A stretch of DNA of 64,000 bases, taken from NCBI GenBank assembly GCA_964369805.1, contig CAYJFM010000002.1, positions 3,376-67,375 of the forward strand. Reading direction: 5' to 3'. The position numbers and the translations under genes were made by a program. How positions within the stretch are numbered: the first letter of the stretch is position 1; the number at the start of each line of letters is the position of its first letter. The notes beneath the pieces are model-generated. The model was not told where the DNA came from. It made no database searches and saw nothing but the letters and a program-made list of their open reading frames with translations. Source of the DNA: an uncultured Oscillospiraceae bacterium. Lineage in GTDB: Bacteria > Bacillota > Clostridia > Peptostreptococcales > Anaerovoracaceae. Of this stretch, positions 10,306 to 46,607 are shown in pieces.

Positions 10306-10332
10306 TCTATATTACTCCTTCTCTTTCAAACA

Positions 10333-11597: not shown

Positions 11598-11658
11598 AAA
11601 TCAAAACATCCCTCTACAGATTAGCTTTTCACTGAAAGTCTAATTTTGTAGAGGGATG
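11598..11658 (-). terminator. Intrinsic terminator after hslU
   Basis: CATCCCTCTACA..ATTAG / CTAAT..TGTAGAGGGATG long stem (12 + 5 bp), followed on the minus strand by TTTTGATTT. Confidence 0.8.
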
Positions 11659-11709
11659 TAAGTTTTAAAGTTTTAGATAGCCCTTTTATTTCAAGGACAC
11701 TCCACACGT

Positions 11710-13146: not shown

Positions 13147-13156
13147 TTTTCCCTCC

Positions 13157-13696
13157 CTAAAGTTTTTCTACAGAAATGTTTTCATTTGTGTACACACAAA
13201 TTGAAGCTGCAATTTCCAGTGATTTTCTTGCAATATCTTCTGCTCCTAAGTCCGTGTTATTGAATAGGGCATTTGCCGCTGCGTATGCATAGTTACCACC
13301 AGATCCAATTGCTAAAAAATCTTGGTCTGGTTCAATCACTTCACCATTACCTGAAATTAATAGCATAGACTCTTTATCTACTGCAATCATCAAAGCTTCA
13401 AGATTTCTCATTACTTTGTCTGTTCTCCATAACTGTGCTAATGCTACGGCTGCTCTCTTTAGATTTCCGCCATGCTCTTCAAGCTTTTTCTCAAACTTTT
13501 CTGTTAGCGAAAAAGCGTCTGCCACAGAGCCTGCAAAACCTGTTAGTACTTGTCCTTTATAAATTCTTCTTACTTTTTTTGCATGAGCTTTCATAACAGT
13601 GCTCTGCCCCATAGTCACTTGTCCATCACCTGCTATGCAAATGTCATCTTCTCCCCTTCTTATCGCTACTATTGTAGTTGCATGAAATGTTGTCAT
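13157..13696 (-). CDS. hslV: ATP-dependent protease subunit HslV
   Basis: The track gives 13157..13708. The internal ATG ([14 protein letters not shown]) is preceded by GGAGGA at a 5-nt spacing. N-terminal Thr-type protease sequence. Confidence 0.93.
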
Positions 13697-13708
13697 CTTT
13701 TCCTCCAT

Positions 13709-15805
13709 TTACTCTTTGTATTTACATTCTTTGTTCGAACATGAAATTGTTGTATCTTTGAGTTTTTTAGATACTAGCTGCTCTCCGCAGTCTGGGCAAA
13801 GCTTGTCTACTGGTTTGTCCCAATAAACTTGATTGCAGTCTGGGTATCCACTGCATCCATAGAATACTTTCCCACGCTTGCTTTTTCTTTCAATTAATTC
13901 TTTACCACATTTAGGACAATTTACTCCTGTTTTCTTTATGATAGGTTTTGTTGTCTTACATTCTGGATAGTCTGAACAGGCTAAAAACTTACCGAATCTA
14001 CCTTCTTTTATTGCCATTTGTTTTCCGCAGTTTTCGCAAAGTTCCTCTGTTAAAACTACAGGGATTTCAATTTTTTCTATTTCTTCTTCTGCCCTAGCTA
14101 AGTCTTTTTCAAATACTACATAGAACTTTCTAATAATTTCTTTCCACTCTGTCCCTTGCTCTTCAACATTATCAAGCCCTGCTTCCATCTCAGCTGTAAA
14201 AGATGCATCTACGACCTCTTTGAAGTAGTCTTCCATCATGTCTGTAACAATAAAGCCAAGTTCCGTTGGGATTAATGTTTTCTTTTCTCTTTTAATATAT
14301 TTTCTATCTGTAAGTGTTGATACTATAGGTGCATATGTACTTGGTCTTCCAATATCTTTTTCTTCAAGATATTTAATCAGGGAAGCTTCCGTAAATCTAG
14401 GCGGTGGAGATGTGAAGTTCTGATTGCCTATTACTTCTTTTTCCTCTAGTTTTTGCCCATCTTCTAGCAATGGCATCTTCATTTCATCCTCAGTTCCAGC
14501 ATTGTAAACTCTCAAAAATCCGTCAAATTTCAACGTTGAACCTGTTGCTCTAAATACATATTTACCATTAATGATATTTGCTGAAACACTGTCATATACA
14601 GCTGGAGCCATTTGACTTGCAAGAAATCTAGTCCATATCAGCTTATACAATTTATATTGGTCATTTGATAATGATTCTTTAATTTTCTCTGGATCTATGT
14701 CCACATAAGATGGCCTAATCGCCTCATGAGCATCTTGAATGTCCTTTTTCTTACTGGAATAAACATTATCTGACCAATATTTTTCTCCTAGGTGATGTTC
14801 AATGTACTCTTTTGCTTGAGCCTTTGCCTCATTTGAGATTCTTACCGAGTCAGTTCTAAGGTAAGTAATCAGTCCAACAGTTCCTTTTGTAGGAATGTTT
14901 ATTCCTTCATAAAGTTCTTGGGCTACTTTCATCGTTTTTCTTGGGTTGAAATTTAATTTGCTTGATGCATCTTGTTGCAAACTACTTGTTGTAAATGGTG
15001 CATAAGCTTTTCTTTTTCTATCCTTCTTTGTTGCATCGGCTACGGTATAATCCCCAGTCTTCAGTTCAGCTAAAATGGTATCTGCCTCTGCCTTATTTCC
15101 AATTTTAATTTTCTTCTTATTATATAGTACCAGGTTAGCCTCAAATTCCTTAACACGGTCTTCTTCATTTGGATTTTTGAAAGTACCTATAATATTCCAG
15201 AATTCTTCTGGGATAAAACTTGTAATAGCTTTCTCTCTATCACATATTATTTTTAGAGCTGCTGACTGCACCCTGCCTGCACTAAGTCCAGTTTTAATTT
15301 TTTTCCATAGTAATGGACTAATTTTATATCCTACTAGTCTGTCTAGTACTCTTCTTGCTTGCTGCGCATCAACAAGTTTGATATCTATTTTTCTTGGGTG
15401 ACTAACTGCGTTTTTAACAGCTTCTTTTGTGATTTCATTAAAAACAATTCTACATTCTTCTTCTTGATCGATTCCTAGTAGAAAGGCTAAGTGCCAAGAT
15501 ATAGCTTCCCCCTCCCTATCAGGGTCAGTTGCCAGGTATATTTTCGAAGCTTTTTTTCCTTCTTTTTTTAATTCTTTTATTAGATCTCCCTTGCCCCTTA
15601 TATTTATATATCTCGGTTCAAAATCATTTTCTATATCAATTCCAATTTGGCTTTTTGGTAAATCTCTAACATGGCCTACAGAGGCTATAACTTTATATGA
15701 ACTCCCCAGAAACTTCCCTATGGTCTTTGCCTTTGAGGGAGATTCTACTATCACTAATTTCTTTTTTGGTGCCGCTTTTTTTGGTGCCGCTTTTTTCGTC
15801 GCCAT
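13709..15805 (-). CDS. topA: DNA topoisomerase I
   Basis: The track gives 13709..15841. The probable start is MATKKAAPKK, with GGAGAG 6 nt upstream. Toprim LVIVESPSKAKTIGKFLG; C-terminal CxxC zinc ribbons. Confidence 0.95.
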   Translation of the reverse strand: MATKKAAPKKAAPKKKLVIVESPSKAKTIGKFLGSSYKVIASVGHVRDLPKSQIGIDIENDFEPRYINIRGKGDLIKELKKEGKKASKIYLATDPDREGEAISWHLAFLLGIDQEEECRIVFNEITKEAVKNAVSHPRKIDIKLVDAQQARRVLDRLVGYKISPLLWKKIKTGLSAGRVQSAALKIICDREKAITSFIPEEFWNIIGTFKNPNEEDRVKEFEANLVLYNKKKIKIGNKAEADTILAELKTGDYTVADATKKDRKRKAYAPFTTSSLQQDASSKLNFNPRKTMKVAQELYEGINIPTKGTVGLITYLRTDSVRISNEAKAQAKEYIEHHLGEKYWSDNVYSSKKKDIQDAHEAIRPSYVDIDPEKIKESLSNDQYKLYKLIWTRFLASQMAPAVYDSVSANIINGKYVFRATGSTLKFDGFLRVYNAGTEDEMKMPLLEDGQKLEEKEVIGNQNFTSPPPRFTEASLIKYLEEKDIGRPSTYAPIVSTLTDRKYIKREKKTLIPTELGFIVTDMMEDYFKEVVDASFTAEMEAGLDNVEEQGTEWKEIIRKFYVVFEKDLARAEEEIEKIEIPVVLTEELCENCGKQMAIKEGRFGKFLACSDYPECKTTKPIIKKTGVNCPKCGKELIERKSKRGKVFYGCSGYPDCNQVYWDKPVDKLCPDCGEQLVSKKLKDTTISCSNKECKYKE

Positions 15806-24835: not shown

Positions 24836-25750
24836 TTATCTTTTATGACTTTTTCTTAAAAATTCAAATTTGGTTTCTGAACATATTATAGCTATAAAGA
24901 TTAACACAAAGCCGATAATCATTCTTGAGTTTGGATCATCTAGACCTACTATGATTGATATGATTACTGCAAAGGGTCCCTCTAAGGAAAATATAATTCC
25001 TGCTGTTGATGGGTTTGTATACCTTTGAGTTAAATTTTGAATTAAAAATGCTAATACAGATGAAAATATAACCAAAAATAATATCTGAAAAATAGTTTCA
25101 GCTGGTATGGATTTTGGCATCTCGCTTGTGAATGTAGTTGCTATGATTCCAAATAACGCCACAAATCCAAATTGAACAGTAGTTATTAGGAGTACATCGT
25201 TATCTTTTATTAGCTTTCCTACAGAAATAATTGTACATGCAAAGAAAAAAGCTACCATTATGCCAAGCACTGTTCCAAGGCCTCCAGTTATGTTCCCAGT
25301 CAAGGAAATAAACCCAATTCCAATCACCGCTAATATACTGCCAATTATATTATATTTATTTGGTCTTTTTTTATCCACAAGCCAATATAAGAATGGTACC
25401 ATTATGCAGTATATGCTAGTTAAAAAGCCCGTTGTTCCTGGAGTTGTAATATCGAGTGTTAATATTTGCGTTGCATATGTCAGAAATAAAAAAGTTCCAA
25501 TTATTGCGCCTTTCCAAATATATTCAACATTGATTTTTTTCCATCGTTTCCCTGTAATAACTGCCAAAATAAGAAACGCAGCTGAAAACCTTACGGCAAT
25601 TAATGCTAAAGGGTCTAAGACCTCTAAAACGCCTTTTGAAACTACAACTGCGCTAGCCCATAATATAGGTGCTAAAATCAATAAATTTTTAGGGTTGAAT
25701 TTACCTTCAACCCTATTTATAGTATATGTATCTTTCATGAGAAACCTCAA
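24836..25750 (-). CDS. DMT-superfamily (EamA-type) transporter
   Basis: 304 aa, ~10 TM helices with two EamA-like halves. It lies 53 nt downstream of the thioesterase on the same strand. Confidence 0.8.
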   Translation of the reverse strand: MRFLMKDTYTINRVEGKFNPKNLLILAPILWASAVVVSKGVLEVLDPLALIAVRFSAAFLILAVITGKRWKKINVEYIWKGAIIGTFLFLTYATQILTLDITTPGTTGFLTSIYCIMVPFLYWLVDKKRPNKYNIIGSILAVIGIGFISLTGNITGGLGTVLGIMVAFFFACTIISVGKLIKDNDVLLITTVQFGFVALFGIIATTFTSEMPKSIPAETIFQILFLVIFSSVLAFLIQNLTQRYTNPSTAGIIFSLEGPFAVIISIIVGLDDPNSRMIIGFVLIFIAIICSETKFEFLRKSHKR

Positions 25751-25803: not shown

Positions 25804-26217
25804 CTACTCTCCGAAAATTTTTCTCATTAACTTGCCAAAAGGTTTACTTTTTCTATTAACTGAGTCATAGCTAACAAATATAGATTCTAACCTAACCAAG
25901 GCATCATCTTCTCCCTCTCTAAAAATTTCAAATAGCATTGTTACGCTTGAATTTCCAAGGCGAAGGATTTTCATCCCAATATCCAAATCATCCCCTTCAA
26001 AAGCACTAGAAATATATTCTATAGTATTTTTTCTATGACAAATTTCAGCTTCATGATTTACCACTAACTCTTTATAAGTATACCCTTTACTTCTAAAGTA
26101 ACTTTCTATTGCTTCTTCTGTATATATTATATAGTTTGCATTATGAACTATTCCTTGAGGGTCTGCTTCATTAAATCTGACTCTTACTGATGTAAAAAAA
26201 TCAAAGTCTTTCCTCAT
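25804..26217 (-). CDS. 4HBT/YbgC-type hot-dog acyl-CoA thioesterase
   Basis: 137 aa. VRVRFNEADPQGIVHNANY is the YbgC-like catalytic Asp motif. The start overlaps the ferredoxin gene by 17 nt. Confidence 0.85.
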   Translation of the reverse strand: MRKDFDFFTSVRVRFNEADPQGIVHNANYIIYTEEAIESYFRSKGYTYKELVVNHEAEICHRKNTIEYISSAFEGDDLDIGMKILRLGNSSVTMLFEIFREGEDDALVRLESIFVSYDSVNRKSKPFGKLMRKIFGE

Positions 26218-26479
26218 CTTCTGTTCTCCTTTGCTTCATTAATGCTGCATACCTTTTATTTGCAGCTCTAGTACTAGTAGAAGCTTTTCTAACTTTATGA
26301 TGAAAAGCTTTAACATCGCAAATATCTACACAGTAACCACAGTTAATACATAGTTTGAAAGAGTCCACTGTAGGGGTTGGGCAAGCTTCCTTAGAAGCTT
26401 CAATAACCCCTTGAGGGCAAACAACTACACACTTATTACATCTAGTGCATTTTTTTGTGTCAACTGTAAATAGTTTCAT
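26201..26479 (-). CDS. Small 2x[4Fe-4S] ferredoxin-domain protein with a basic C-terminal tail
   Basis: 92 aa. CTRCNKCVVVCP and CINCGYCVDIC cluster motifs. The tail is RKASTSTRAANKRYAALMKQRR. Confidence 0.85.
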   Translation of the reverse strand: MKLFTVDTKKCTRCNKCVVVCPQGVIEASKEACPTPTVDSFKLCINCGYCVDICDVKAFHHKVRKASTSTRAANKRYAALMKQRRTEDEERL

Positions 26480-26495
26480 TTTTTCTCCCTTATAC

Positions 26496-27695
26496 TTAGG
26501 CTTGGTGCACAGCTCCTGATTCTAATAGTTCATTTATTCTTTCCTCAGTATAGCCTGCTTCACGTAGAATTTCAATGCTTTGGGCCCCAGGGAAATTTGA
26601 TGCTGGATTATATGGGTCCACTGGAGTCTTACTAAATTTTATTGGAGTATTTATAGCCATCATTTTTCCAACTGTTGGTTGCTCTATTTCTACAGCAACA
26701 TCTAGTTCTTTAGTTTGTGGAATATTTAAAAACTCAACAACGGTTTGAACTACTGATGCTGGTACCATTACATCCTTCAATTTTTTCTCCATATCTGCTT
26801 TGCATTGCTTAATAGTTGCAAGCTCGATAGCTTCAATTAAAACTTCCCTGTTAGCATTTCTCTCTTCATTACAAGCAAATCTTTCATCTCCAAGTAGTTC
26901 CTCAAGACCCATAGCCATGCAGAATCTCTTCCACTCTTCTTCTTTTGTTATTGCAACAGCGATATGTCCATCAGCGGCTGTAAACTCTCCAAAAGGAGCA
27001 AACCATGGATGGTGGTTTCCTGTTCTTGGAGTAAATTCACCCTTAACAGAATGTTCTAGAACTGCTCCCTCACACATGTAAAAAGCACAATCTAGCATTG
27101 CAATATCTACTCTAGTTCCTTCCCCAGTTTTTTGTCTATTTAGTAAAGCCATTGATAATCCGCGCAACAAGTTTAAGCCTGCCCATGTATCACACATTGA
27201 GAATCCAGGTTTAATTGGAACTTGTCCCTCATTTCCAGTTTGCCCAATGAGCCCGCTTCTTGCTGCTGCTATAATATCCATACAAGGTAGATGTGATAAT
27301 GGCCCGTAAGTACCAAAGCCTGCAATAGATCCATATATTATTTTTGGATTCACTTTGATCATTTCTTCATAACCTAGCCCTAATTTTTCTAAGGTTCCAG
27401 ACTTAAAGTTTTCAATAACTATATCTACATCCTTAACTAGCTCCATAACTAATTTTTTGCCTTCCTCAGAACGCATATCTATAGCTATCCCTTTTTTCCC
27501 TCTATTATACTGGCAAAAGTATAGACTCACATCGTTTACATATGGTCCATATTCTCTTGATAAGTCCCCTCCGCCTGGTCTTTCAATTTTTATCATTTCA
27601 GCACCTAGGTCAGCAAGGAGCATTCCACAAAACGGCGCTGCTAATACTTGAGAAAAGTCTAATATTTTTATTCCTTCTAGCAGTTTTTTATTCAT
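26496..27695 (-). CDS. Family III (CaiB/BaiF-type) CoA-transferase, paralogue 1
   Basis: The track gives 26496..27701 (MCMNKK...). LEGIKILDFSQVLAAPFCGMLLADLGAEMIKIERPGGGD N-terminal signature. Asp in PGFSMCDTWAG aligns by eye with the CaiB catalytic Asp. Confidence 0.9.
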   Translation of the reverse strand: MNKKLLEGIKILDFSQVLAAPFCGMLLADLGAEMIKIERPGGGDLSREYGPYVNDVSLYFCQYNRGKKGIAIDMRSEEGKKLVMELVKDVDIVIENFKSGTLEKLGLGYEEMIKVNPKIIYGSIAGFGTYGPLSHLPCMDIIAAARSGLIGQTGNEGQVPIKPGFSMCDTWAGLNLLRGLSMALLNRQKTGEGTRVDIAMLDCAFYMCEGAVLEHSVKGEFTPRTGNHHPWFAPFGEFTAADGHIAVAITKEEEWKRFCMAMGLEELLGDERFACNEERNANREVLIEAIELATIKQCKADMEKKLKDVMVPASVVQTVVEFLNIPQTKELDVAVEIEQPTVGKMMAINTPIKFSKTPVDPYNPASNFPGAQSIEILREAGYTEERINELLESGAVHQA

Positions 27696-27770
27696 ACACA
27701 TAATTGCTAAGCCCTACATTTAATAGTAATGGCTACGCACTCCTTTCTTCGTTACAATCCCATCCATTTC

Positions 27771-28949
27771 CTATATGACACCTTTTGTCTTAAGATCTTC
27801 TAAATCGCTCGTTGCAATATTAATAGAACAATAAATATCTTCATTATTTTCGCCAAGCTTTGGTGCTGGAAGAATATCACTTTCTATCTCACCTATAAAT
27901 TTTATTGGTCTTCCTGGCATTTGTACCTTACCAATTAAAGGGTTTTCAATTTCATGAAGCATATTTCTCTCATGAAGTTGAGGATCTGTTAGGGCTTGTT
28001 CAGTTGTTCCACACATTGTACCTGGAATTAATATCTCATCACAAATATCAGAAAACTCTTTCATTGTGTAGTCTTCTAATAGCTTTTCTAACTTTACTCT
28101 AAGGTCACCAAAGTAGTTTTGCCCTCTATATAAATTTGAACTATACTTTTCATCAGAAGCCCACTCTGGATGGCCAAAACGTATAGATAACTTCTTCCAT
28201 TGATCGTCAGAAGATGCACCAATTGCAACATATCCATCTTTGCACTTTAATACATCATACGGATTAATATTTGGATGGGCATTTCCAGTACGCATAGGGT
28301 CTCTTCCTGTTGCACTATAAGTAATTACCTTATCTTCAGATATAGCAAGTAATGTAGCGCATAATGCGGTTTCTACTAATTGTCCCTCTCCAGTTTCTTT
28401 CATGTGCATAATTGCTAGGGTAATTCCTGCTGACAAGAAAGTTGCTGAGTATCTCTCTCCAATTGAAAATCCGATTCTGGTTGGAGGTGCATCTGGGAAA
28501 CCTGTAACATGCATAGCTCCACTTTTTGCTTGAGCAAGCAGTTCTATTTGGGGGAAGTCATTCCCCTCTCCAGTAGATCCATATCCTGTAGTTCTTCCAT
28601 ATATTATTGCAGGTTTTAGTTTAGCCATATCCTCATATCCAAGGCCTATAGCTTCCAATGTGCCAATAGGGAAGTTCTCTAAAACAACATCCGCTGTTTT
28701 AACCAATTCCTTAAAAATTTCCTGGCCTTCTTTTTTAAATAGATTTAATGTGATGCTTTTCTTTCCTCTATCTCGAAAGGCGTGATGAGGACTGCTTCCG
28801 TTTACTACTGGCAGCAGTTTCCTTAACTCATCTCCTTCTTCTGGCATTTCTACTTTTATTACTTCTGCCCCGTAGTCAGCTAATTCCATTCCACAGTATC
28901 CAGAAAGAGTCATCAAATCTAACACTCTTATTCCTTTTAAAGGCTCCAT
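27771..28949 (-). CDS. Family III (CaiB/BaiF-type) CoA-transferase, paralogue 2
   Basis: The track gives 27771..28991. The start at MEPLKGIRVLDL is preferred because AAGGAG lies 7 nt upstream. LKGIRVLDLMTLSGYCGMELADYGAEVIKVEMPEEGD. Confidence 0.9.
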   Translation of the reverse strand: MEPLKGIRVLDLMTLSGYCGMELADYGAEVIKVEMPEEGDELRKLLPVVNGSSPHHAFRDRGKKSITLNLFKKEGQEIFKELVKTADVVLENFPIGTLEAIGLGYEDMAKLKPAIIYGRTTGYGSTGEGNDFPQIELLAQAKSGAMHVTGFPDAPPTRIGFSIGERYSATFLSAGITLAIMHMKETGEGQLVETALCATLLAISEDKVITYSATGRDPMRTGNAHPNINPYDVLKCKDGYVAIGASSDDQWKKLSIRFGHPEWASDEKYSSNLYRGQNYFGDLRVKLEKLLEDYTMKEFSDICDEILIPGTMCGTTEQALTDPQLHERNMLHEIENPLIGKVQMPGRPIKFIGEIESDILPAPKLGENNEDIYCSINIATSDLEDLKTKGVI

Positions 28950-29044
28950 AACATTTCTCCTTTCATCAGGTAAAATTTTCTCTATCAGCAAAGGCCCCTA
29001 TAAAATATTCTTTTAAGAGCCTCTGCTTAATTATTTATATGCTA

Positions 29045-30688
29045 TTACTTATCTTTTTCTTCAGACTCAGCATAAAAAGTTTCACTTTTCTTAGCTACTT
29101 CTTCTAGAAGTTCCTTTTCCTGTAATTCTAAATTTCTTTTATGTACTCCATTTCTAGAGTCTTCTTTAAGCCATTTGAATAGTCCAATTTCTACCCCGAT
29201 AACAATTATCATAAATGGTACCGAAATAATTATTGCTAAATATTTAATCGCATCAAACCCAGTTCCTGTCAATACAATCGTCATAGGGATTATAGCTAGT
29301 AAAACGCAGAAGAACATTCTTACTTTCATTGGAGGAGTTCCTTTTTTTGTTGCAGTCTCAGCTAGTGCTAAAGAAGCTGAATCTAAAGATGGAACTAAGA
29401 AGCATACTATAAGTACTAAGATAATAATCGGCCCAAGGATTGCTCCAAGTGGTAGTGCATTTAATACTTCAAATACAATTCCTTCGCCTATTGCTTCTTG
29501 TCCGTTTGTTCCGTTTACTAACCCTGGAACATCCACAATTCCTTCTACAAAAGTGCTGATTGAGAAGCTACCTAATACTCCAAAGATTATAATGCTTCCT
29601 CCAGTAATACCAAACATAGTTGCAAGTGCAAGTGCACGAATAGTTCTTCCTTTAGAGATTTTAGCTATAAAAATTCCCATCATTGCTAGGTAGTTCAAAT
29701 AGAATGCCTGGAAGTAAATTGTCCAGCCCTCTACAAATCCTGTTTGGTTAATAGGGTCAGTAAATAGTGTCATTCTTATAGAGTCTTCAATAGTGAATCC
29801 TATTGAGTTAACAATATTTTTGAAAATAAACTCTGCTGGCCCCATTAGAAGTACATATAACAAAAAGACTACTGTTAATGCTGCAGCTATATTTGAAATT
29901 ACTTTCATACCTTTATGAACACCTAAGTATGAAGTAAATGTGTATATTACACCGATTACTAAAATTACAGCAACTTGCAATACTGGTGTTACCTCAACAC
30001 CTGTTATTATAGAGAATGCATTTGAAGCTAAAGGAACCCCTAGTCCTAAAGAAGAGCTTAATGCACCAAGTATCCCAAAAATAACTACAAAGTCGATTAC
30101 TTTTCCTATTGTTGATTTTCCTTTAACTTTCTCTCCTAACATAGCACTGCAAAGTGCACTTGTTTGGAAAGATGATACTTTTCTTACATAAACTCCATAA
30201 GCAATTGCTGCACCAAACACTGTATACATTGCTTGATTTACAATTCCCCAGTGATAGAATTGATAACTTAATGAAGTTTCTAGTGCTAAAGTGCTTTCTG
30301 GCTCCATTCCAAGTCCTGGTGCTGCATAGTAAAATGCCCACTCTGCAAATGACCAATAAAGTGCTGCTGACGCTAATGAAGCAAGCAACATCATTATAAT
30401 ATAACTTAATGTGCTAAACTCAGGTTTTGTATCACCAAGCCTGATTTTACCGTATTTGCTAAAGCAAAGAAATAATGCAATAATAAAAGTCGCAAATGTA
30501 AAAACTTGAAATGCAGGGCCTAATACCGCTATCATTTCCCAAAAAAATCCTGATATTGCTGTAACTGTTCCTTCTGCATTTATTATCATAAACCCTAAAA
30601 ACACTGTAAGTATAATAACACTAACAACTACTAGTCCTACTTCTATATTTACTCTAGAATTTTTCTTCTCATTCGTATTAGCATCCAT
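29045..30688 (-). CDS. BCCT-family (betaine/carnitine/choline) transporter
   Basis: 547 aa, 12 TM. BCCT signature region GWTIYFQAFYLNYLAMMGIFIAKISKGRTIR. Confidence 0.9.
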   Translation of the reverse strand: MDANTNEKKNSRVNIEVGLVVVSVIILTVFLGFMIINAEGTVTAISGFFWEMIAVLGPAFQVFTFATFIIALFLCFSKYGKIRLGDTKPEFSTLSYIIMMLLASLASAALYWSFAEWAFYYAAPGLGMEPESTLALETSLSYQFYHWGIVNQAMYTVFGAAIAYGVYVRKVSSFQTSALCSAMLGEKVKGKSTIGKVIDFVVIFGILGALSSSLGLGVPLASNAFSIITGVEVTPVLQVAVILVIGVIYTFTSYLGVHKGMKVISNIAAALTVVFLLYVLLMGPAEFIFKNIVNSIGFTIEDSIRMTLFTDPINQTGFVEGWTIYFQAFYLNYLAMMGIFIAKISKGRTIRALALATMFGITGGSIIIFGVLGSFSISTFVEGIVDVPGLVNGTNGQEAIGEGIVFEVLNALPLGAILGPIIILVLIVCFLVPSLDSASLALAETATKKGTPPMKVRMFFCVLLAIIPMTIVLTGTGFDAIKYLAIIISVPFMIIVIGVEIGLFKWLKEDSRNGVHKRNLELQEKELLEEVAKKSETFYAESEEKDK

Positions 30689-30773
30689 AAGATACTCCTT
30701 TCCCTAAAAAGTCTGTTTAATATTTTCGTTCTAGCTAAAATTCAATGGCGCTTAAGTTTAATTGTTTTTTGTT

Positions 30774-30828
30774 TTAAAAATGCCCACCTACTAACTCACT
30801 TTAGGCATTAGTTATGAGGCGGGCATTC
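30774..30828 (-). terminator. Intrinsic terminator/attenuator hairpin between the acyl-CoA dehydrogenase and BCCT genes
   Basis: The minus strand reads AATGCCCGCCT...AGGTGGGCATT (11 bp including one G-U) with an inner TAACT/AGTTA helix, followed by TTTTTAAAAC. Confidence 0.6.
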
Positions 30829-30864
30829 TAAAAAGTATGGGTAAAATACTTCTATTTTATTTTT

Positions 30865-32037
30865 TTACCATCCAGTGTAGATTTCTGGACCACGTTTTTT
30901 GATTTGACCGCTTACAACAATACGTTGAATTTCAGAAGTTCCTTCCCAAATTCTATCAACACGTGTGTCACGGAATAATCTCTCTACAGGATTTTCACGC
31001 ATATAGCCACGTCCACCTAAGATTTGAACGCCTTTATCAGCTACTCTTCCAACCATTTCAGAAGTCCATAATTTAAGAGCTGAAGCTTTTGCATGACGAA
31101 GCTTTCTATCAGCATCTGGTTGAGAAATTTCCCAACAAACACGGTAAAGCATACTTTTTGCAGCCATAATATCCATAGCCATATCAGCTAGCATAAATTC
31201 TATTGCTTGGCAATCACGGATATATTGACCATTAAATGTTTTACGAGTCGCAGCAAATTCATTTGCAACATCAAGTACACGAGTAGCTCCACCAACGCAA
31301 CGAGCCGCGATTCCTAATCTAGCTTCTACGAACCAGTCTTTTGTCATATCAAAACCTTGGCCAACTTTTCCTAAGATTTTACTTTCATCTACAACTACAT
31401 CTTCAAATACAAATTCAGGATGTTTGAATGCAAAGTGATGTGTAAATTGAGGTGTACGTTTAATACTCACTCCAGGAGCATCTTTTTCTACAAAGAATAC
31501 TGTAGCTTTGTCAACATCTCCATCTACATGTGCATGTACAAGTAGAAAGTCTGCAACATCACCAACTGTTACATACCATTTTTCACCATTAATTCTATAT
31601 CCACCATCGCATTTATCAGCTCTAGTTAGGCACATTGTAGGATCAGAACCAGCGTCTGCTTCAGTGATTGCATATGCATCTCTACGTTTGTTTTGGCAAG
31701 CTGGAATTAAGTATTCTTCGATTTGATCTTGTGTACCAAAGCACATTGGGTATGATGGTTGAGGAACTGCATCCCAAATAGCTCCTGTCGATTGTCCAAG
31801 TTGTTCACTTACTAGCATTTGTTCAAATAGTGTCATTCCTTGTCCACCGTGCTCTTTTTTATGGTTTGTTGCATTGAAACCCCAGTCCATAACCTTTTGG
31901 TTAATAATTGCATGTGTTTCTTTTGTAAGACCATCATTTTCTTCGCATTCCATTTCATAAGGGAATAAAACCTCTTGTGTAAACGCCTTTGCTTTTTCTT
32001 GTAACTCTCTATGCTCTTTGCTTAATGTAAAATCCAT
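30865..32037 (-). CDS. Acyl-CoA dehydrogenase-family flavoprotein (CaiA/BbuA-like)
   Basis: 390 aa, full ACAD fold. C-terminal IWEGTSEIQR retains the Glu of the usual catalytic-base position. No etfAB is nearby. Confidence 0.9.
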   Translation of the reverse strand: MDFTLSKEHRELQEKAKAFTQEVLFPYEMECEENDGLTKETHAIINQKVMDWGFNATNHKKEHGGQGMTLFEQMLVSEQLGQSTGAIWDAVPQPSYPMCFGTQDQIEEYLIPACQNKRRDAYAITEADAGSDPTMCLTRADKCDGGYRINGEKWYVTVGDVADFLLVHAHVDGDVDKATVFFVEKDAPGVSIKRTPQFTHHFAFKHPEFVFEDVVVDESKILGKVGQGFDMTKDWFVEARLGIAARCVGGATRVLDVANEFAATRKTFNGQYIRDCQAIEFMLADMAMDIMAAKSMLYRVCWEISQPDADRKLRHAKASALKLWTSEMVGRVADKGVQILGGRGYMRENPVERLFRDTRVDRIWEGTSEIQRIVVSGQIKKRGPEIYTGW

Positions 32038-32118
32038 AAATTGCTCCTTTCTTTCATTTATAGATAAATCTAACGTTTCGTTATTCTTTTATTTTGACTA
32101 ACGATCTAATTTAGCTAG

Positions 32119-32146
32119 ATTATATAACAGAAAAAGCCAGTGTCAA
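32119..32146 (-). promoter_or_regulatory. Strong sigma-A promoter for the acyl-CoA dehydrogenase gene
   Basis: The reverse strand reads TTGACA-N16-TATAAT, leaving a ~70-nt 5' UTR to the ATG at 32037. Confidence 0.65.
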
Positions 32147-32505: not shown

Positions 32506-32610
32506 TAGTGTTAAATGGTGTTATTTCAACAGATATAGTGTTAACTAGTGCTAAATTTCTTCTTAATTTTGCTATTATTTTATACATTACCTAGTGTTAA
32601 CTAGTGTTAA
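32506..32610 (+). repeat. Five direct copies of a TAGTG(T/C)TAA(A/C) decamer
   Basis: Copies at 32506-32515, 32536-32545, 32546-32555, 32591-32600 and 32601-32610, i.e. two adjacent pairs plus one single copy. A degenerate TGGTGTTAT sits at ~32516. Confidence 0.85.
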
Positions 32611-32624
32611 AAAAGGGGGATGCC

Positions 32625-34184
32625 ATGGCTTATTTTCTGAAAAAATCCAAATTAAAAAAAGGTGTATATCTTCAAATATATGAAAGTTATTACAATAAAG
32701 ATACTAAAAGCACATCAAACCGCTCATACAGGTGTATCGGCTATGTTGATGAGCTTACTACCAATGAAATCCCTGACCCAGTTTCTTACTATTCTTCTTT
32801 TGTCACAAAAATGAACGAAAAGCATAAACTGCGTAAGCAAAATAAAAAGAAAAAACAGATTTCTACTTCGCCAGTTAAACATCTAGGCTATTTCCCTTTG
32901 AAATCAATTTTAAATCGCCTTGATATTTCAAATGAAATAAATTCAATAGGAGAAAAACAACATTTTGAAACTTCTCTTTATCCCGTATTAGAAGCTGCCC
33001 TTTTTGCTAATGCCGTTAATATGCTTTCTAAAACAAGTGCTTTTCACAGCCAAATACCTAAACTATATGATACTTTTGAGCTTACACCCCATAATATCTA
33101 TTTTGGAATCGAAGCTCTTGGTAAAGATTATGAAGCAATCATAGATATAATAAATACGAAACTACTTAATAGTACTACTCCAAATAATCAGGACTTATAT
33201 TTTGTATCACATGATATCAAGTATCCCGCTTCTATGCCTAGCAAAGACTCTTCACCATATAAAAATCTTCATGCAAATTTACTTTTAGATGCTAATCTTT
33301 TGCCAATTGATCTCAAAATACTTACAGATAGCTCTGCAAATAAACCGTTTTTGGCAGACTTATTTCATAGCGCAAAAGATAGCAGATTCAAGGGTAAAAA
33401 ACTTACTTTTGTTGCAGCAGCTCACTCTGGCTTCCAAAATGTATTACATCATGCAATAAGGAATTCTTATGACTACATAATCAGTAAACCAGTCAACCTT
33501 CTCTCTCCTACAGAAAAATCTTGGCTTATTGATAGCTTAGACTATACACCTACCTATTCAAGCGATAGTAAGCTTATATCAAAATCAAAATCAGCAGTAT
33601 TTACTACCACTTATTCTTTTCCACAGCAGTTTGGAGGTTATAAATCAGTAACTTTAGAAGAAAGACACATTGCAATCTACTCTCCTTCTAGTCATGGTGC
33701 TAGCGATTGTTATACTTATTTAATATCTTCTAAAATAGACGTTGACTATCAACACCTTTATTTGAAATTTGCAAATATAATCAAAACCAAAGATGCTTAT
33801 CAAAATATGTTTTTAAGTTTACGTTCTAAGCCTATTTTCCTTGAAACTGAAAAGTCAATCAAAGGGCATATCTTAATCAGCTATATGACTACATTGCTTC
33901 TTGGTATAGCGCTTACCGAAAAACTTCGCATCTGCATTACCCCTCAAGATTTTACAAATTTCGCTAGAAGTTTCCTTGTGGTTAAAAGTGGTGATCAGGA
34001 ATATGTAAATGTTAGCAAGCATAGTGAAATAATTCAGTTTATAGCAGATACCTTAGATCTACCTTTAACCAATTACTATTTAACTAGTGATGAGGTAGCC
34101 TTAATTGCTAATGGTGATGCTTTTTTAAATGAACTTACAGATGAACTAAATACATTAATCTGTTCAAACGAGCATATGCTCTAA
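32625..34184 (+). CDS. IS1634-like (IS4 superfamily) transposase-related protein, possibly catalytically inactive
   Basis: The track starts at GTG 32604. ATG 32625 (MAYFLKKSKLKKGVYLQIYESYYNK...) follows a GGGGG RBS. The N-terminus and the C-terminal ...KGHILISYMTTLLL region resemble IS1634-family transposases as I remember them. I could not place the DDE residues. Confidence 0.6.
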   Translation: MAYFLKKSKLKKGVYLQIYESYYNKDTKSTSNRSYRCIGYVDELTTNEIPDPVSYYSSFVTKMNEKHKLRKQNKKKKQISTSPVKHLGYFPLKSILNRLDISNEINSIGEKQHFETSLYPVLEAALFANAVNMLSKTSAFHSQIPKLYDTFELTPHNIYFGIEALGKDYEAIIDIINTKLLNSTTPNNQDLYFVSHDIKYPASMPSKDSSPYKNLHANLLLDANLLPIDLKILTDSSANKPFLADLFHSAKDSRFKGKKLTFVAAAHSGFQNVLHHAIRNSYDYIISKPVNLLSPTEKSWLIDSLDYTPTYSSDSKLISKSKSAVFTTTYSFPQQFGGYKSVTLEERHIAIYSPSSHGASDCYTYLISSKIDVDYQHLYLKFANIIKTKDAYQNMFLSLRSKPIFLETEKSIKGHILISYMTTLLLGIALTEKLRICITPQDFTNFARSFLVVKSGDQEYVNVSKHSEIIQFIADTLDLPLTNYYLTSDEVALIANGDAFLNELTDELNTLICSNEHML

Positions 34185-34260: not shown

Positions 34261-34917
34261 TTAATAGTATCTTACCAGTTCTTCCATCGATGCCCTTTTG
34301 CTAACTAATGCGTTTTCTGCTGCTTCAGTTTCCTCATATCCCATTAGTACGGCTATTAGCATAACCTCATCATCATCTAGTTTAAGGTGCCTTTTCATGA
34401 CTTCATGATATGAAGATCCTTGTTCTGTAATACAAGTAGCAACATTATATTCCATTGCTGCAAGGCAAATGGATTGAATAATCAGTCCTGCATTAAGTAC
34501 TCCCCACTTATTTTCAAAAAAGTTTTTTTCTATTGTTACAAACACTACGCAAGGCGCCTCGTAAAGCCTATTTCCTGCTAATCCCCATGCCTCTCTTTTT
34601 CCTTTATCTTCCCTTTTTATTTCTAAAAGCTGAAATAAATCTATTGCTAATTCTTTTCTACGTTGCCTAAATACAGGATTTAATTCTGGTTCAGGAACAT
34701 CAACCTCTATACCTGAATTGTACTTTTCCTCATTGTCATTTTTAATTTTCTCTAAGATTTCTCCTTTTACTATGTGTAGTTTCCAAGGCTGAACATTTGT
34801 AGCTGACGGACTTCTTAATGAAGCCATGACTATTTTCTTTATCACCTCATCTGGTAACTCTTTTTCTTGAAACTTTCTAGTGCTCTTTCTTAGTTCAATT
34901 GCTTTTATTACATCCAT
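34261..34917 (-). CDS. Nitroreductase-family flavoprotein (paralogue of 7218..7880)
   Basis: 218 aa. RKSTRKF and PSATNVQPW; co-linear similarity to the first copy along the whole length. Confidence 0.85.
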   Translation of the reverse strand: MDVIKAIELRKSTRKFQEKELPDEVIKKIVMASLRSPSATNVQPWKLHIVKGEILEKIKNDNEEKYNSGIEVDVPEPELNPVFRQRRKELAIDLFQLLEIKREDKGKREAWGLAGNRLYEAPCVVFVTIEKNFFENKWGVLNAGLIIQSICLAAMEYNVATCITEQGSSYHEVMKRHLKLDDDEVMLIAVLMGYEETEAAENALVSKRASMEELVRYY

Positions 34918-34934
34918 ATTAAACCTCCTTTTGT

Positions 34935-35777
34935 TTATAATAGCTCTACGGTGCAGTAATCTAACACCGTATCTCCACTTTTGCTATTTTCAACTTTAAA
35001 TAATGCCTTTTTATTATCTATTTTCCATATTTTGGTTTCAATGTCTGAATTCATTTCAAGTATATTAGTAAATCTAATATTTAGCTTATGGATCTTTTCT
35101 GGGTTTTGCGGGCAAAGCACCTTCACTAATGCTCTGCAAGCAAATCCTGCTATACACATTCCCATAACTATGGGAGCATTATACCCACCTAGCTTTGCAA
35201 ATTCAGGATCTATATGTAAAATGTTAGGATCATTATCAATTCTATACATAGCAACATGCGTGGAGTCAATACAGTCAAGTATCTTATAGTCTGCCTCTCT
35301 ATCAGGAAAACTTACTTTTGCATTTTCTGGTTTCAATCCTCCAAAGCCTCCTGTCGAAAGATCTACATCTTTTGTTATTAGTGTAAAAACCTTTTCACCA
35401 CTTTCGTCAAAAGCTTCTGACTTTATTACTGCTAAGCTTCCTCTTTTTTCCCCTCTATCAAAAATATCTGTGATTTCAACCGTATATTTGATCTTACCCT
35501 CTGTTGCTTTAAGTTCTTTATGGAAAACTATCTCAAATCCATAATGTAGTGTCGTTGGAATGTATTGTCCATATTCATATATATCAGTAAACTCCTTAAG
35601 GCCTAAAATAGAAGCCCAGAAAGTTGGAAGTATTTTCATGTTTTTTTCATACACATACTCTAACTCTTCTTCTACAGTTGCTCCCACGCTAAGCGCATAA
35701 AGCGCCAGTTTTTTCCAAGAATATTCTAATTCTAAAGGGCCTTTCACTACTCCTTTTTCACCAAATCTCAAGCCCAT
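34935..35777 (-). CDS. MaoC-like double hot-dog (R)-specific enoyl-CoA hydratase (hydratase-2 type)
   Basis: 280 aa. C-terminal hydratase-2-like motif YRIDNDPNILHIDPEFA (Asp and His retained), with an N-terminal pseudo hot-dog half. Confidence 0.75.
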   Translation of the reverse strand: MGLRFGEKGVVKGPLELEYSWKKLALYALSVGATVEEELEYVYEKNMKILPTFWASILGLKEFTDIYEYGQYIPTTLHYGFEIVFHKELKATEGKIKYTVEITDIFDRGEKRGSLAVIKSEAFDESGEKVFTLITKDVDLSTGGFGGLKPENAKVSFPDREADYKILDCIDSTHVAMYRIDNDPNILHIDPEFAKLGGYNAPIVMGMCIAGFACRALVKVLCPQNPEKIHKLNIRFTNILEMNSDIETKIWKIDNKKALFKVENSKSGDTVLDYCTVELL

Positions 35778-38124: not shown

Positions 38125-39303
38125 TTATCTTTCTACGATAAGTGCTGTTCCCATTCCACCACCGATGCAAAGTGTAGCAAGACCTGTTTTTGAGTCTCTC
38201 TTTTCCATTTCGTGGATTAGTGTAATAAGAATTCTTGTTCCTGATGCTCCAATTGGGTGTCCAATTGCAATAGCTCCACCATTTACATTTAGAATATCTT
38301 TGTTAATTCCTAAGTCTTCACCTACAGCTAGTGCTTGAGCTGCGAAAGCTTCGTTAGCTTCGATTAGGTCTAGGTCTTTCATTTCAATTCCTGCTGTTGC
38401 TAAAGCTTTTTGTGTTGCTGGAACTGGTCCGATTCCCATGATTGATGGGTCAACACCTGCAGAAGCGTATGATTTAATTGTGCAAAGTGGTTTTAGTCCT
38501 AGTTCGTCAGCTTTTTCTTTTGACATAACTACGATAGCTGCACCTGCATCATTGATTCCAGAAGCGTTAGCTGCTGTAACTGAACCGTCTTTTTTGAAAG
38601 CTGGTCTTAGTTTAGCAAGTCCTTCAGCAACAACTCCATCTTTAGGATATTCATCTGTATCAAATACGATTGGATCTCCTTTTCTTTGAGGAATTTCTAC
38701 TGGAACGATTTCGTCTTTAAATTTTCCTTCTTTGATTGCTGCAATTGCTTTTTGTTGCGAGCTAGCTGCAAATTCATCTTGAGCTTCTCTTGTGATTCCA
38801 TATTTTTCCACTAAGTTTTCAGCAGTGATTCCCATGTGATATCCAGCAAAAGCATCTGTTAGGCCGTCTCCAACCATCATGTCTACCATTTTTGCATCGC
38901 CCATTCTTGCTCCCCATCTAGCTTGTGGAACTACGTATCCAGCTTGAGACATATTTTCTGCACCACCTGCAACGATAATATCAGCATCTCCTGCTTTTAT
39001 AATTGAAGCCGCTAGGCCAACCGCTCTTAGACCTGAACCACATACTTTGTTGATTGTCATTGCTGGAACCTCTTGTGGAAGACCTGCATCAATTGCAATT
39101 TGTCTTGCAACGTTTTGCCCTTGTCCACCTTGAAGTACGCAACCCATGATTACTTCATCAACTTGCTCGCCAGCTACTCCAGCCCTTACTAAAGCTTCTT
39201 TTACTGCGATTGCACCTAAAGTTCTAGCTGCTGTTCCTTTTAGAGTTCCTCCAAAAGATCCTATCGGTGTTCTAACTGCACTTACGATTACTACATCTCT
39301 CAT
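38125..39303 (-). CDS. thlA: Acetyl-CoA acetyltransferase (biosynthetic/degradative thiolase II)
   Basis: 392 aa. Active-site Cys context [11 protein letters not shown]; C-terminal [17 protein letters not shown] and CIGGGMG. Confidence 0.95.
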
Positions 39304-41985: not shown

Positions 41986-42029
41986 GATTATAGTTTAAAT
42001 CACATTTTTTTCAACAAGGAGGTCTGCTG

Positions 42030-43217
42030 TTGAAAACTGCATTAGTACTCGGAGGGGGAGGCTCAAAAGGGAGCTATCAAATAGGTGTCTGGAAAGCACT
42101 CAAAGAACTGGGTGTTTCTATTGATATGGTCTTTGGCTCTTCAATAGGCTCTCTTAACGGTATGCTAATCGCACAAGATGATTATAATAAAGCAATCAAG
42201 CTTTGGTCTACTCAAAACACAAAAGATATTTTTGGTATTAAAGCTAATGACAGCATCACCCCTACATTTCCTATTCGTGCAGTAGCAGGTATGCCTATAG
42301 ATGAAGTATTTGGCTATGCAAATGAAATAATAAAAGGTGGTGTAGCCAATGATTTATTATCTCAAATAATAGAGGATTTGTTAAATGAAGATGCCTTAAG
42401 ATCTTCTAAGGTTAGCTTTGGTTTAATTATGACTAACGCTAATAGTCTCACTCATAAATATGTTTATCTGAAAGACATTCCTAATGGCGAAATCGGCTCC
42501 TACATTCTTGCATCCTCTTCCGTTTTCCCCGTTCTTCATTCAGTGCTAATTGATGATGCCTACTATATTGATGGCGGGTTTTCAGATAATCTTCCTGTTA
42601 CAATGGCTTCTGATATGGGTGCTGAAAAAGTTATATGCGTGGATTTAAAAAATGTAGGAATAATTCCTCAAAAAAGGATTAATTTGGTTAGAGACCTTTC
42701 AAAAGAATTCGTATATATTGCTCCAAAATGGGACTTGGGTAATATGTTGCATTTTAACGAAAAATTAGCCATGAGAAATATCAAGCTTGGTTATTTGGAT
42801 GCTATGAAAGCCTTCGGAGTTTATGATGGAGAACTATTCACTTTTTCAAAAGGCGCTTTCTCTGCTGACAATATTTTGCTACCCTCTTCAGAACTTAAAG
42901 AAGAATACCTTAGAATTATTGAGCTACTAGGTGAGGTTTTTCAAGTATCTCCTTACAAATTATATGATAAGGATAGCTTCGATAGAGTCCTCAGGGCCAA
43001 TACAGAAGAATACCTCATGCATTTTGGTAAAGATAAAAGTTCTTTCTCTTATCTACTCGAAAGTATGTTAAAGTTATCCCGAAAAGATCGTATCTCACAA
43101 ATAGCTCTAGATTTAAAAAGTAATAGCGCAAAAAGCAAGTTTCTCAACCCGAAAATCTATAACTTAATTCGAGATGATGTTCTAGCAGCAACTTACATAT
43201 ATCAGAATTTGCTATAA
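42030..43217 (+). CDS. Patatin-like phospholipase, paralogue 1 (TTG start)
   Basis: 395 aa. Oxyanion GGGGSKG, nucleophile elbow GSSIGS, catalytic DGG (YIDGGFSDNLPV). AGGAGG RBS 7 nt before the TTG. Confidence 0.9.
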   Translation: MKTALVLGGGGSKGSYQIGVWKALKELGVSIDMVFGSSIGSLNGMLIAQDDYNKAIKLWSTQNTKDIFGIKANDSITPTFPIRAVAGMPIDEVFGYANEIIKGGVANDLLSQIIEDLLNEDALRSSKVSFGLIMTNANSLTHKYVYLKDIPNGEIGSYILASSSVFPVLHSVLIDDAYYIDGGFSDNLPVTMASDMGAEKVICVDLKNVGIIPQKRINLVRDLSKEFVYIAPKWDLGNMLHFNEKLAMRNIKLGYLDAMKAFGVYDGELFTFSKGAFSADNILLPSSELKEEYLRIIELLGEVFQVSPYKLYDKDSFDRVLRANTEEYLMHFGKDKSSFSYLLESMLKLSRKDRISQIALDLKSNSAKSKFLNPKIYNLIRDDVLAATYIYQNLL

Positions 43218-43277
43218 GTTTACGGTAATACAAAGATTCGTATAGTACATAGTCTCATTATCAAAAAGGAGTTTGAA

Positions 43278-44453
43278 ATGAAAACAGGTTTAGTGCTCGG
43301 CGGTGGTGGGGCAAAAGGAAGTTATCAGATTGGAGTTTGGAAAGGACTTCGAGAATTAGGTATAAAGATAGACTGCGTAGCTGGTTCATCTGTTGGTTCT
43401 CTAAACGGTGTTCTCGTTGCTCAAGATTCCTATGAAAAAGCCCTAAAAATTTGGAATACAAATACTAGTGCTGGTATATTCTCAATTGATACGCCTACAG
43501 AATATGCAGAATTTACCCCTGTAAAAGCTGTTGCCGGTCTACCAATTGAGGAAGTCTTTGGCTACGCAAATGAAGTTGCAAAAGGAGGCGCACAGCCAAC
43601 TGGTCTACAAGAAATTATGACTAATAATCTTGATGAAGATGTTTTAAGAAATTCAGGTATAGATTTTGGCCTTTGTATAACAAATACCAAAACAGGCTCT
43701 AGCAAATATGTTCACCTCAAAGATATTCCAAAAGGTGAGGTGAGCAAGTACATATTAGCTTCTTCGGCCTGCTTCCCTGTAGCTCACACCGTAGACATAG
43801 ATAATGTAACTTATGCTGACGGCGGCTTTACTGACAACCTACCAGTTACTATAGTTTCTGACATGGGTGCTGAGCGAATAATTTGTGTTGACTTAAAAGC
43901 TGTCGGCTACATTCCTCCCCACAGGGTTGAACTTGTCAAAGATATTTCCAAGGAATTTATATATATAGAACCAAAGTGGGACCTTGGTAATATGCTTTAC
44001 TTTAATAGTGAAATTGCCGAAAAAAATATTCAACTTGGCTACCTAGATTGCATGAAAGCTTTTGGGAAATATGCTGGAAGTTCATTCACCTTTGAGCGAG
44101 ATAGCTTTGTGAAAGATGGGACAGGAGACCTAAAAAATCTTATTATTAGAGCAGCCGATCATTTAGGTGTTGTTTTTGAGTTGGATCCTTATGTACTATA
44201 TGACAAGAAATCCTTCGATATAGCTCTGAGAGCAAAGGCTGAAGACTATTTAAATGTACAAAGACATGAGACACTTTCCTTAAACACAATACTAGAAAAC
44301 TCTGGTAAATTATCAATAAAAGATAGGATAGCAAGGATTGCTATAGACTTCAAAGCTAAGGAAGAGGAAAGCAAGTACTTATCTCCCACACTCTATAAAC
44401 TTATTGAGGATGACATCCTTGCAGCAACCTATCTATATTATTACTTAATATAA
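43278..44453 (+). CDS. Patatin-like phospholipase, paralogue 2
   Basis: 391 aa. GGGGAKG, GSSVGS, YADGGFTDNLPV. Confidence 0.9.
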   Translation: MKTGLVLGGGGAKGSYQIGVWKGLRELGIKIDCVAGSSVGSLNGVLVAQDSYEKALKIWNTNTSAGIFSIDTPTEYAEFTPVKAVAGLPIEEVFGYANEVAKGGAQPTGLQEIMTNNLDEDVLRNSGIDFGLCITNTKTGSSKYVHLKDIPKGEVSKYILASSACFPVAHTVDIDNVTYADGGFTDNLPVTIVSDMGAERIICVDLKAVGYIPPHRVELVKDISKEFIYIEPKWDLGNMLYFNSEIAEKNIQLGYLDCMKAFGKYAGSSFTFERDSFVKDGTGDLKNLIIRAADHLGVVFELDPYVLYDKKSFDIALRAKAEDYLNVQRHETLSLNTILENSGKLSIKDRIARIAIDFKAKEEESKYLSPTLYKLIEDDILAATYLYYYLI

Positions 44454-44564
44454 ATTCTGCATTACAAATTCCAAAATGATGTACCTACTTAACGGTTCTC
44501 GTTAAACATGTAGTGCACGAATATAATAGTTAAATTAACGTATACAACAAAAGGAGACCAAAAA

Positions 44565-45746: not shown

Positions 45747-45804
45747 TCATGCAGGATGGTTTTAGGCTTGCATTCTAAGTTCTTAGTAAAATTATAACCA
45801 GAAT

Positions 45805-45832
45805 TAAAAAAAGGCCTTAGCAGCCTTTTTTT
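45805..45832. terminator. Bidirectional terminator between patatin 3 (+) and rluB (-)
   Basis: AAAAAAAGGC-CTTAGCA-GCCTTTTTTT. It overlaps the last codons of rluB. Confidence 0.75.
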
Positions 45833-46524: not shown

Positions 46525-46607
46525 TTTATTTCCTTTCCTTATTCACATAGTCAGTCTACCATATCTATCTAAAATGTGCTACAATTTACTAGAAGAAAGG
46601 ACTATTT

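Follow-up and report, generated by a model that had tools for sequence, protein, structure and literature searches.

The closest described relative of the locus reported here is the bbu cluster of Emergencia timonensis, which was defined by Rajakovich et al. 2021 (PMC8364193) and is also named gbu (PMC10653785). Its flavoenzyme BbuA resembles acyl-CoA dehydrogenases (ACADs) and eliminates trimethylamine (TMA) from gamma-butyrobetainyl-CoA to give crotonyl-CoA, a redox-neutral reaction that needs oxidised FAD. BbuB and BbuC are class III CoA transferases, ~30% identical to each other, which form a complex and are both required, while bbuD, bbuE, and bbuF encode a di-[4Fe-4S] ferredoxin, a BCCT carrier, and a thioesterase (PMC8364193). 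BbuA is reported to need GroEL/ES for soluble, active expression (PMC8364193, PMC10653785), and the A, B, C, and E genes suffice in a heterologous host given a GroES/EL pair (PMC10653785). We analysed a 64,000-nt stretch of contig CAYJFM010000002.1 (hereafter the window, whose positions are used throughout), in which an earlier note had pointed to this six-gene system, correctly as judged from PMC8364193, and had proposed an orthologous or closely related pathway at 25804–32146. This proposal is supported by protein identities, clustering, and a fully supported clade, and the locus very probably functions as a bbu/gbu cluster for the use of gamma-butyrobetaine, in a clostridium related to the Anaerovoracaceae.

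TMA derived from carnitine via gamma-butyrobetaine feeds hepatic formation of trimethylamine N-oxide, which is associated with cardiovascular risk. Carriers of bbu/gbu are few, with seven species found in a survey of UHGG (PMC10989800), and each added carrier refines the marker sets used for metagenomic quantification. The window holds a complete copy of a system published in 2021–2022, not a new system, and its gene order was already represented in the PMC8364193 set (as 'ENun'). By its sequence relationships, it appears to be a further carrier from a basal bbu lineage.

Two other systems invite comparison. The caiTABCDE/fixABCX system of Escherichia coli likewise works through trimethylammonium acyl-CoA thioesters, for which it has a BCCT carrier, a flavoenzyme of the ACAD fold, and a class III CoA transferase. 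However, it needs the CaiC ligase, the CaiD hydratase, and electrons from Fix/electron-transfer flavoprotein (ETF), and it stops at gamma-butyrobetaine without C–N cleavage. AbfD, the 4-hydroxybutyryl-CoA dehydratase of clostridia that ferment gamma-aminobutyrate (GABA), is an ACAD-superfamily flavoenzyme that performs an analogous C4 elimination, converting a butyryl-CoA derivative to crotonyl-CoA; it also carries a [4Fe-4S] cluster. Sequence identity between AbfD and BbuA is ~10% (PMC8364193), and the likeness is one of chemistry, not of family.

Composition of the cluster and identity of its proteins

The six genes lie on the minus strand, all as intact open reading frames (ORFs) at the coordinates that had been given for them, and all are co-directional with bbuA first. 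In the order of transcription they are bbuA (30865–32037), whose 390-aa product is a predicted FAD-dependent, ACAD-fold gamma-butyrobetainyl-CoA TMA-lyase; bbuE (29045–30688), for a 547-aa BCCT-family transporter (Pfam BCCT, E=7e-106) presumed to take up gamma-butyrobetaine; bbuB (27771–28949) and bbuC (26496–27701), for class III CoA transferase subunits of 392 and 401 aa; bbuD (26201–26479), for a 92-aa 2x[4Fe-4S] ferredoxin (Fer4 families, two CxxCxxCxxxC motifs); and bbuF (25804–26217), for a 137-aa hot-dog acyl-CoA thioesterase of the YbgC/FadM type (TIGR00051, 71 bits against a cut-off of 68.7). A gene for an EamA/DMT-family transporter (Pfam EamA) follows on the same strand at 24836–25750. 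The window order is thus A-E-B-C-D-F and then EamA.

Pfam and NCBIfam confirmed the family of every cluster protein. The ACAD has all three domains, and the assignments made earlier from the letters alone (two CoA_transf_3 proteins, a 92-aa two-cluster ferredoxin-like protein, and a hot-dog thioesterase) proved right. The motifs RIWEGTSEIQR in the ACAD and ISKGRTIR in the BCCT protein are both present, the thioesterase and ferredoxin genes share 17 nt, and the EamA gene begins 53 nt beyond the thioesterase gene, all as had been described. The description of the genes as tightly packed does not hold after the first gene, where a 176-nt spacer separates bbuA from bbuE. The bbuB start is most likely the ATG at 28949, which has AAAGGAG 7 nt upstream and gives a product of 392 aa, the length of E. 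timonensis BbuB. A TTG at 28991 (ORF 27771–28991) was set aside in its favour because of this ribosome-binding site and length match.

We compared the ACAD with the BbuA reference sequences in Dataset S6 of PMC8364193. It was 79.5% identical over 390 aa to BbuA of E. timonensis, 78.7% to that of A. desmolans, and 77.2% to that of E. minutum, and it reached 83.6% with the Epulopiscium protein from a metagenome-assembled genome (MAG) in the same set. Membership was defined in PMC8364193 as >70% identity to E. timonensis BbuA; the window protein lies above this value, by a margin that matters as uncharacterised proteobacterial proteins reach 70–71%. In metagenomic surveys a read-mapping rule of 70% would capture the window bbuA, whereas stricter cluster screens might miss its partners, at 62–69%. 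No bbuA-like gene above 55% identity was found among the PLSDB plasmids.

The BbuA family is highly conserved, with a mean column identity of 80% among 16 sequences. The catalytic Glu365 of IWEGTSE is kept in the window protein, as in 81/81 relatives. Two further segments align with the substrate pocket of medium-chain acyl-CoA dehydrogenase (MCAD): W88-D89, which is invariant in the family, with MCAD Q95-T96, and D234-W235-F236 with G250-A251-F252, where W235 and F236 are invariant and D234 occurs in at least 90% of the sequences. Together, W88-D89 and D234-W235-F236 plausibly provide the aromatic and acidic residues of a site that receives the trimethylammonium group. The pocket was assigned from the MCAD alignment because the PDB held no BbuA structure, its best match being a generic ACAD.

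Each of the five remaining proteins is the best match of its Bbu counterpart in E. timonensis SN18, with identities of 62% (B), 69% (C), 50% (D), 66% (E), and 54% (F). Protein lengths agree to within a few residues, and those of BbuD and BbuF are the same. The two transferases, 35% identical to each other, can be told apart by the cross-comparisons: the bbuB product is 62% identical to BbuB against 32% to BbuC, and the bbuC product 69% identical to BbuC against 32% to BbuB, which makes their assignment from sequence unambiguous. At the position of the catalytic Asp169 of CaiB, BbuC-type proteins have Asp in 34/34 loci (Asp171 in the window), whereas BbuB-type proteins have Glu in 33/36, Gln in 2/36, and Ser in 1/36 (Glu165 in the window, in the 392-aa numbering). 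These residues suggest that BbuB and BbuC, as subunits of an obligate heteromer, are probably not catalytically equivalent.

The cluster bears little resemblance to the cai proteins at the sequence level. Identities to the E. coli proteins were 27% for CaiA, 24–26% for CaiB, and 29% for CaiT, and all equivalog models scored far below their NCBIfam cut-offs (CaiA 147 against 540 bits, CaiB 102 and 163 against 413, CaiT 328 against 541). The comparison of the ACAD with BbuA and CaiA that had been proposed as a check thus came out on the BbuA side, in identity as well as in phylogeny. So did that of the carrier, which matches BbuE over 528 aa and groups with neither betaine nor choline carriers. 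Of the ~50 plausible genes of at least 110 aa across the window, ~46 were scanned, and none encoded ETF/FixABCX, Bcd, a CaiC-type ligase, a crotonase/CaiD, or CaiE. The earlier statement that etf, ligase, and crotonase genes are lacking therefore extends to the scanned ORFs of the whole window, as expected for bbu and unlike cai.

Related loci, gene order, and phylogeny

Relatives were sought in one genome per species; 259 genomes had relatives, and 80 loci (L001–L080) were retrieved. The full six-gene set occurs in all 37 clostridial loci for which the contig is long enough. These include the experimentally shown TMA formers E. timonensis SN18 (L022), E. minutum (L034), and A. desmolans (L030). 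The window shares with E. timonensis six orthologous, clustered, co-directional genes headed by bbuA, the Asp of BbuC and Glu of BbuB, the lack of ETF, ligase, and crotonase genes, and a transposase-family gene divergently upstream. It differs in its A-E-B-C-D-F order (A-B-C-D-E-F in E. timonensis), the appended EamA gene, a hairpin after bbuA, and an unrelated leader. In the synteny comparison proposed earlier, the clustering of the six genes was thus conserved but not their order, which is permuted, with the BCCT gene second.

The order A-E-B-C-D-F-EamA is common only to the window, L001 (MAG ERP123703_co1_81), and L012 (Epulopiscium sp. Nuni2H_MBin003, the 'ENun' of PMC8364193); the other clostridial loci begin with A-B-C-D and end with E and F, whichever of these two comes first. 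BbuA of the window is 96% identical to that of L001 and 84% to that of L012. The other genes diverge more, at 49–78% in L001 and 42–78% over the two loci, and the flanks are not syntenic with those of the window. An EamA homologue follows the thioesterase gene in the nearest relatives (53% identity in L001, 47% in L012, and 39% in L003), and the locus comparison found none in this position in E. timonensis-type loci. EamA is thus a conserved, lineage-specific seventh gene of the cluster in the nearest relatives. That it exports a product of the pathway is a guess.

The tree was built by neighbour joining, without maximum likelihood, from 84 sequences rooted on CaiA with 100 bootstraps. It separated the BbuA-like family from CaiA and other ACADs (100/100), and, within the family, a clade of BbuA proteins from clostridial full clusters that includes the window (100/100). 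The window pairs with L001 (100/100) and falls with L001, L002, L003, and L012 into a poorly resolved basal group (26/100). A subclade supported by 83/100 replicates contains all three validated enzymes and C. aminobutyricum, but not the window; the nearest experimentally tested enzyme is ~80% identical to the window BbuA.

The genes flanking the window cluster show no synteny with any of the 80 related loci, for which reason the context does not distinguish vertical from horizontal origin. As to the host, the window TopA has four relatives at 78–82% identity; the next ones, at 64–69%, include Anaerovorax, Ihubacter, and Zhenpiania at 66–67%. These matches place the organism near the Anaerovoracaceae, to which E. 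timonensis belongs.

Several related loci had features of their own. L002 and L003 each carry two bbuA copies (at 297 and 5192, and at 522 and 6737, respectively). In L003 an identical 130-nt leader precedes both copies and two thioesterase genes are present, which points to a recent tandem duplication within the cluster. The classical GABA fermenter C. aminobutyricum DSM 2634 has a complete bbu cluster (L005, 10001–16100) whose BbuA is 84% identical to that of E. timonensis. A cultured strain that is not tied to a host would thus be expected to form TMA from gamma-butyrobetaine.

Outside the Clostridia, proteins 58–74% identical to the window BbuA occur in Gamma-, Beta-, and Alphaproteobacteria, Bacilli, Myxococcales, Rubrobacteraceae, and Actinomycetota. 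Against E. timonensis BbuA, 14 sampled proteins gave 57.6–70.7%. About 30 of these loci (within L037–L071) share another conserved cluster, which we call ligase-type. One strand carries genes for an AraC/GATase1 regulator, a CaiE-like protein, a short-chain dehydrogenase/reductase, and an enoyl-CoA hydratase, and the divergent strand those for the ACAD, a fused ADP-forming acyl-CoA synthetase, and a BCCT carrier; examples are L039 of Psychrobacter fozii CECT 5889 (6527–15115) and L054 of Anaerobacillus (6679–15053). The Actinomycetota loci (L072–L080) are without these neighbours. Ligase-type clusters resemble the window in having an ACAD with the same invariant motifs and an adjacent BCCT carrier, but they have the fused synthetase in place of the BbuB/BbuC pair and neither the ferredoxin nor the hot-dog thioesterase.

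From its gene content, the ligase-type cluster may encode either a TMA-lyase route that depends on the ligase and leads to acetoacetyl-CoA or a BcoC-like dehydrogenase route. We found no published description of it in the literature searched. The 'CAI module' of a Psychrobacter plasmid was considered and dismissed as such, as it concerns ordinary CaiA and CaiB homologues. If the ligase-type enzymes release TMA, marine and soil bacteria would have a source of TMA that has gone unrecognised. An identity of ~70% to BbuA is in any case not diagnostic by itself, as ligase-type proteins from Proteobacteria and Bacillus-class organisms reach 64–71%.

Promoter, leader, and upstream region

A consensus promoter had been reported ahead of the cluster, and it is real. 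The sigma-70-type sequence TTGACA-N16-TATAAT (32119–32146, minus strand) precedes the start codon of bbuA by 81 nt, and no other 12/12 match occurs within 24.5–32.7 kb. Only this perfect site carries weight, because weaker promoter-like sites (34 found) were no commoner than in shuffled sequence (32 expected). The leader between promoter and bbuA (32038–32118, minus strand) contains two CGTTAG repeats and the ribosome-binding site AAAGGAG. No Rfam family matched the leader or the bbuA–bbuE spacer at gathering thresholds.

The E. timonensis group has a conserved leader to which this one is not similar. In L005, L008, L009, L022, L033, L020, and L067, the intergenic region about 330 nt upstream of bbuA is conserved, with a motif, CTGCAAAATGCCACAGAAATATTCACAAAAAAA, near the transposase start. 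In the ~150-nt bbuA leader of these seven loci a stem, TGTCTTGG...CCAAGACA, is conserved and GGTTTGTAG boxes are repeated. The region, which is absent from the window, may act as an operator or a cis-regulatory RNA in induction by gamma-butyrobetaine.

A terminator-like hairpin followed by a U-run occupies ~30772–30829 (minus strand) of the bbuA–bbuE spacer (dG −20.6 kcal/mol, then TTTT), and similar hairpins follow bbuA in L001, L003, L013, and L014. It is likely a partial terminator or an mRNA stabiliser. In E. timonensis RNA-seq data, mean counts were ~510,000 for bbuA, 111,000–136,000 for B, C, and E, and 42,000–48,000 for D and F, so that bbuA reads were ~4–10 times those of the downstream genes. 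A hairpin after bbuA would yield a gradient of this kind. Taken together, the hairpin and the E. timonensis gradient suggest attenuation or differential mRNA stability.

Divergently upstream lies a degenerate, IS1634-family transposase-like ORF of 526 aa (32604–34184, plus strand), which may or may not be part of the system. Its match to NF033559 reached 46 bits against a cut-off of 100 and spanned model positions 2–290 of 483 (the N-terminal 60%). The ORF had no Pfam match and no DDE hit, and no inverted repeats flank it. Its nearest database relatives are 29–37% identical, with no close copies in the protein database. An active IS1634 insertion sequence was rejected on account of the sub-threshold score, the partial model match, and the missing inverted repeats. 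A direct repeat of ~20 nt, TAGTGTTAACTAGTGYTAAA, occurs three times at 32506–32611, just upstream of the ORF and overlapping its start.

In 11 Anaerovoracaceae-type loci, a full-length IS1634-family transposase gene precedes bbuA in divergent orientation, among them L022 (7931–9643), L005 (7731–9440), L009 (7552–9264), and L034 (7899–9536), all on the minus strand, and seven more. These transposases are 40–97% identical, with dN (nonsynonymous divergence) of 0.08–0.25 and saturated dS (synonymous divergence), indicating purifying selection. Such recurrence suggests that the transposase has been domesticated, acts as a regulator, or is a vehicle by which the cluster spreads. Orthology of the window ORF to the E. 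timonensis-type transposase was also rejected, as it is ~21% identical to it against 29–37% to generic IS copies; the two are different IS1634 lineages, that of the window being degenerate.

In L001 and L012, the corresponding side of the cluster instead carries GroEL-like genes directly upstream of bbuA (L001, 5603–7237 and 8384–9685 on the minus strand; L012, 3063–4718), accompanied in L001 by a MerR-like regulator. Neither GroEL nor a regulator gene lies near the window cluster. GroEL next to bbuA in the closest relatives of the window echoes the published chaperonin dependence of BbuA.

Proposed function and competing explanations

Following the published system, BbuE would take up gamma-butyrobetaine, and the BbuB/BbuC heteromer would transfer CoA to it from acetyl-CoA or another short acyl-CoA. 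BbuA with oxidised FAD would then eliminate TMA from C4 in a redox-neutral step, leaving crotonyl-CoA. Housekeeping enzymes encoded elsewhere could convert crotonyl-CoA to acetyl-CoA for carbon and ATP and to butyryl-CoA as an electron sink. BbuD and BbuF would be accessory, being dispensable in heterologous reconstitution. Transcription is expected to start from the consensus promoter (32146–32119), and the hairpin after bbuA probably makes bbuA mRNA exceed the downstream message. The orthology, the shared clustering, the intact ORFs, and the conserved catalytic residues are direct observations; from them we infer the substrate, activity, and regulation of the system in the window organism, as well as any role of EamA.

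Some findings weigh against a functional gamma-butyrobetaine pathway. None of the validated enzymes comes from the basal lineages to which the window is closest (L001, L002, L003, and L012), and the window is itself outside the 83%-supported subclade that holds them. BbuB, BbuC, and BbuE are only 62–69% identical to characterised proteins, so their substrate specificity could differ. ACAD identity alone is no functional proof, because BbuA-like proteins of 64–71% identity sit in the quite different ligase-type clusters. The first two of these findings also favour an alternative in which the same chemistry, CoA activation and flavin-dependent elimination, is applied by a basal lineage with its own specificity to another quaternary ammonium or onium acid. 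The differing gene order and extra EamA transporter of the window lineage fit this explanation, as does the source of L012, an Epulopiscium MAG from the gut of a surgeonfish, where the chemical environment is different. However, the BbuA family is extremely conserved, the MCAD-pocket-aligned segments are invariant or nearly so, and the Epulopiscium protein was placed in the BbuA set of PMC8364193 with all six genes retained. We therefore regard another substrate as unlikely. A broader proposal, that a basal bbu lineage with the A-E-B-C-D-F order and a dedicated EamA exporter differs in specificity or product handling and that the upstream transposase serves as a domesticated regulator or vehicle of spread, is doubtful when taken as a whole, if slightly easier to entertain.

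The upstream side of the cluster raises a different objection. The transposase-like ORF lies 566 nt upstream, and no regulator or GroEL gene adjoins the window cluster, whereas GroEL-like genes accompany several other loci. Given the reported GroEL/ES need of BbuA (PMC8364193, PMC10653785), the cluster might be silent or decaying, its native regulation removed by the insertion and its enzymes unable to fold productively without a dedicated chaperonin. This is very improbable in view of the six full-length ORFs with conserved catalytic residues, the perfect promoter, and the good ribosome-binding sites; moreover, E. timonensis expresses its cluster strongly although it, too, has a transposase gene at this position and lacks an adjacent GroEL. 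A cai-like respiratory system, in which carnitine and crotonobetaine would be interconverted and a CaiA-type crotonobetainyl-CoA reductase would yield gamma-butyrobetaine instead of TMA, draws on the families that the window shares with the cai operon (BCCT, ACAD, and class III CoA transferase). The low identities and equivalog scores given above, the absence of CaiC, CaiD, CaiE, and FixABCX/ETF among the scanned ORFs, and the orthology of the proteins to the Bbu set instead reduce its probability to almost nothing. A functional bbu/gbu cluster acting on gamma-butyrobetaine thus remains the preferred explanation.

Other genes of the window include a MaoC-type double hot-dog enoyl-CoA hydratase (34935–35777) and a thiolase (38125–39303), both on the minus strand a few kb upstream of the cluster, with a nitroreductase within 34261–35777. 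The hydratase and the thiolase could act on crotonyl-CoA; the transposase-like ORF stands between them and the cluster, and they show no synteny with bbu elsewhere. Three tandem paralogous genes for patatin-like phospholipases of 395, 391, and 393 aa lie at 42030–45746 (plus strand). A Moco/tungsten-cofactor riboswitch (RF01055, 52102–52206, plus strand) scored 40.7 bits, above the gathering score, and precedes an aldehyde:ferredoxin oxidoreductase-like gene at 52131–54089.

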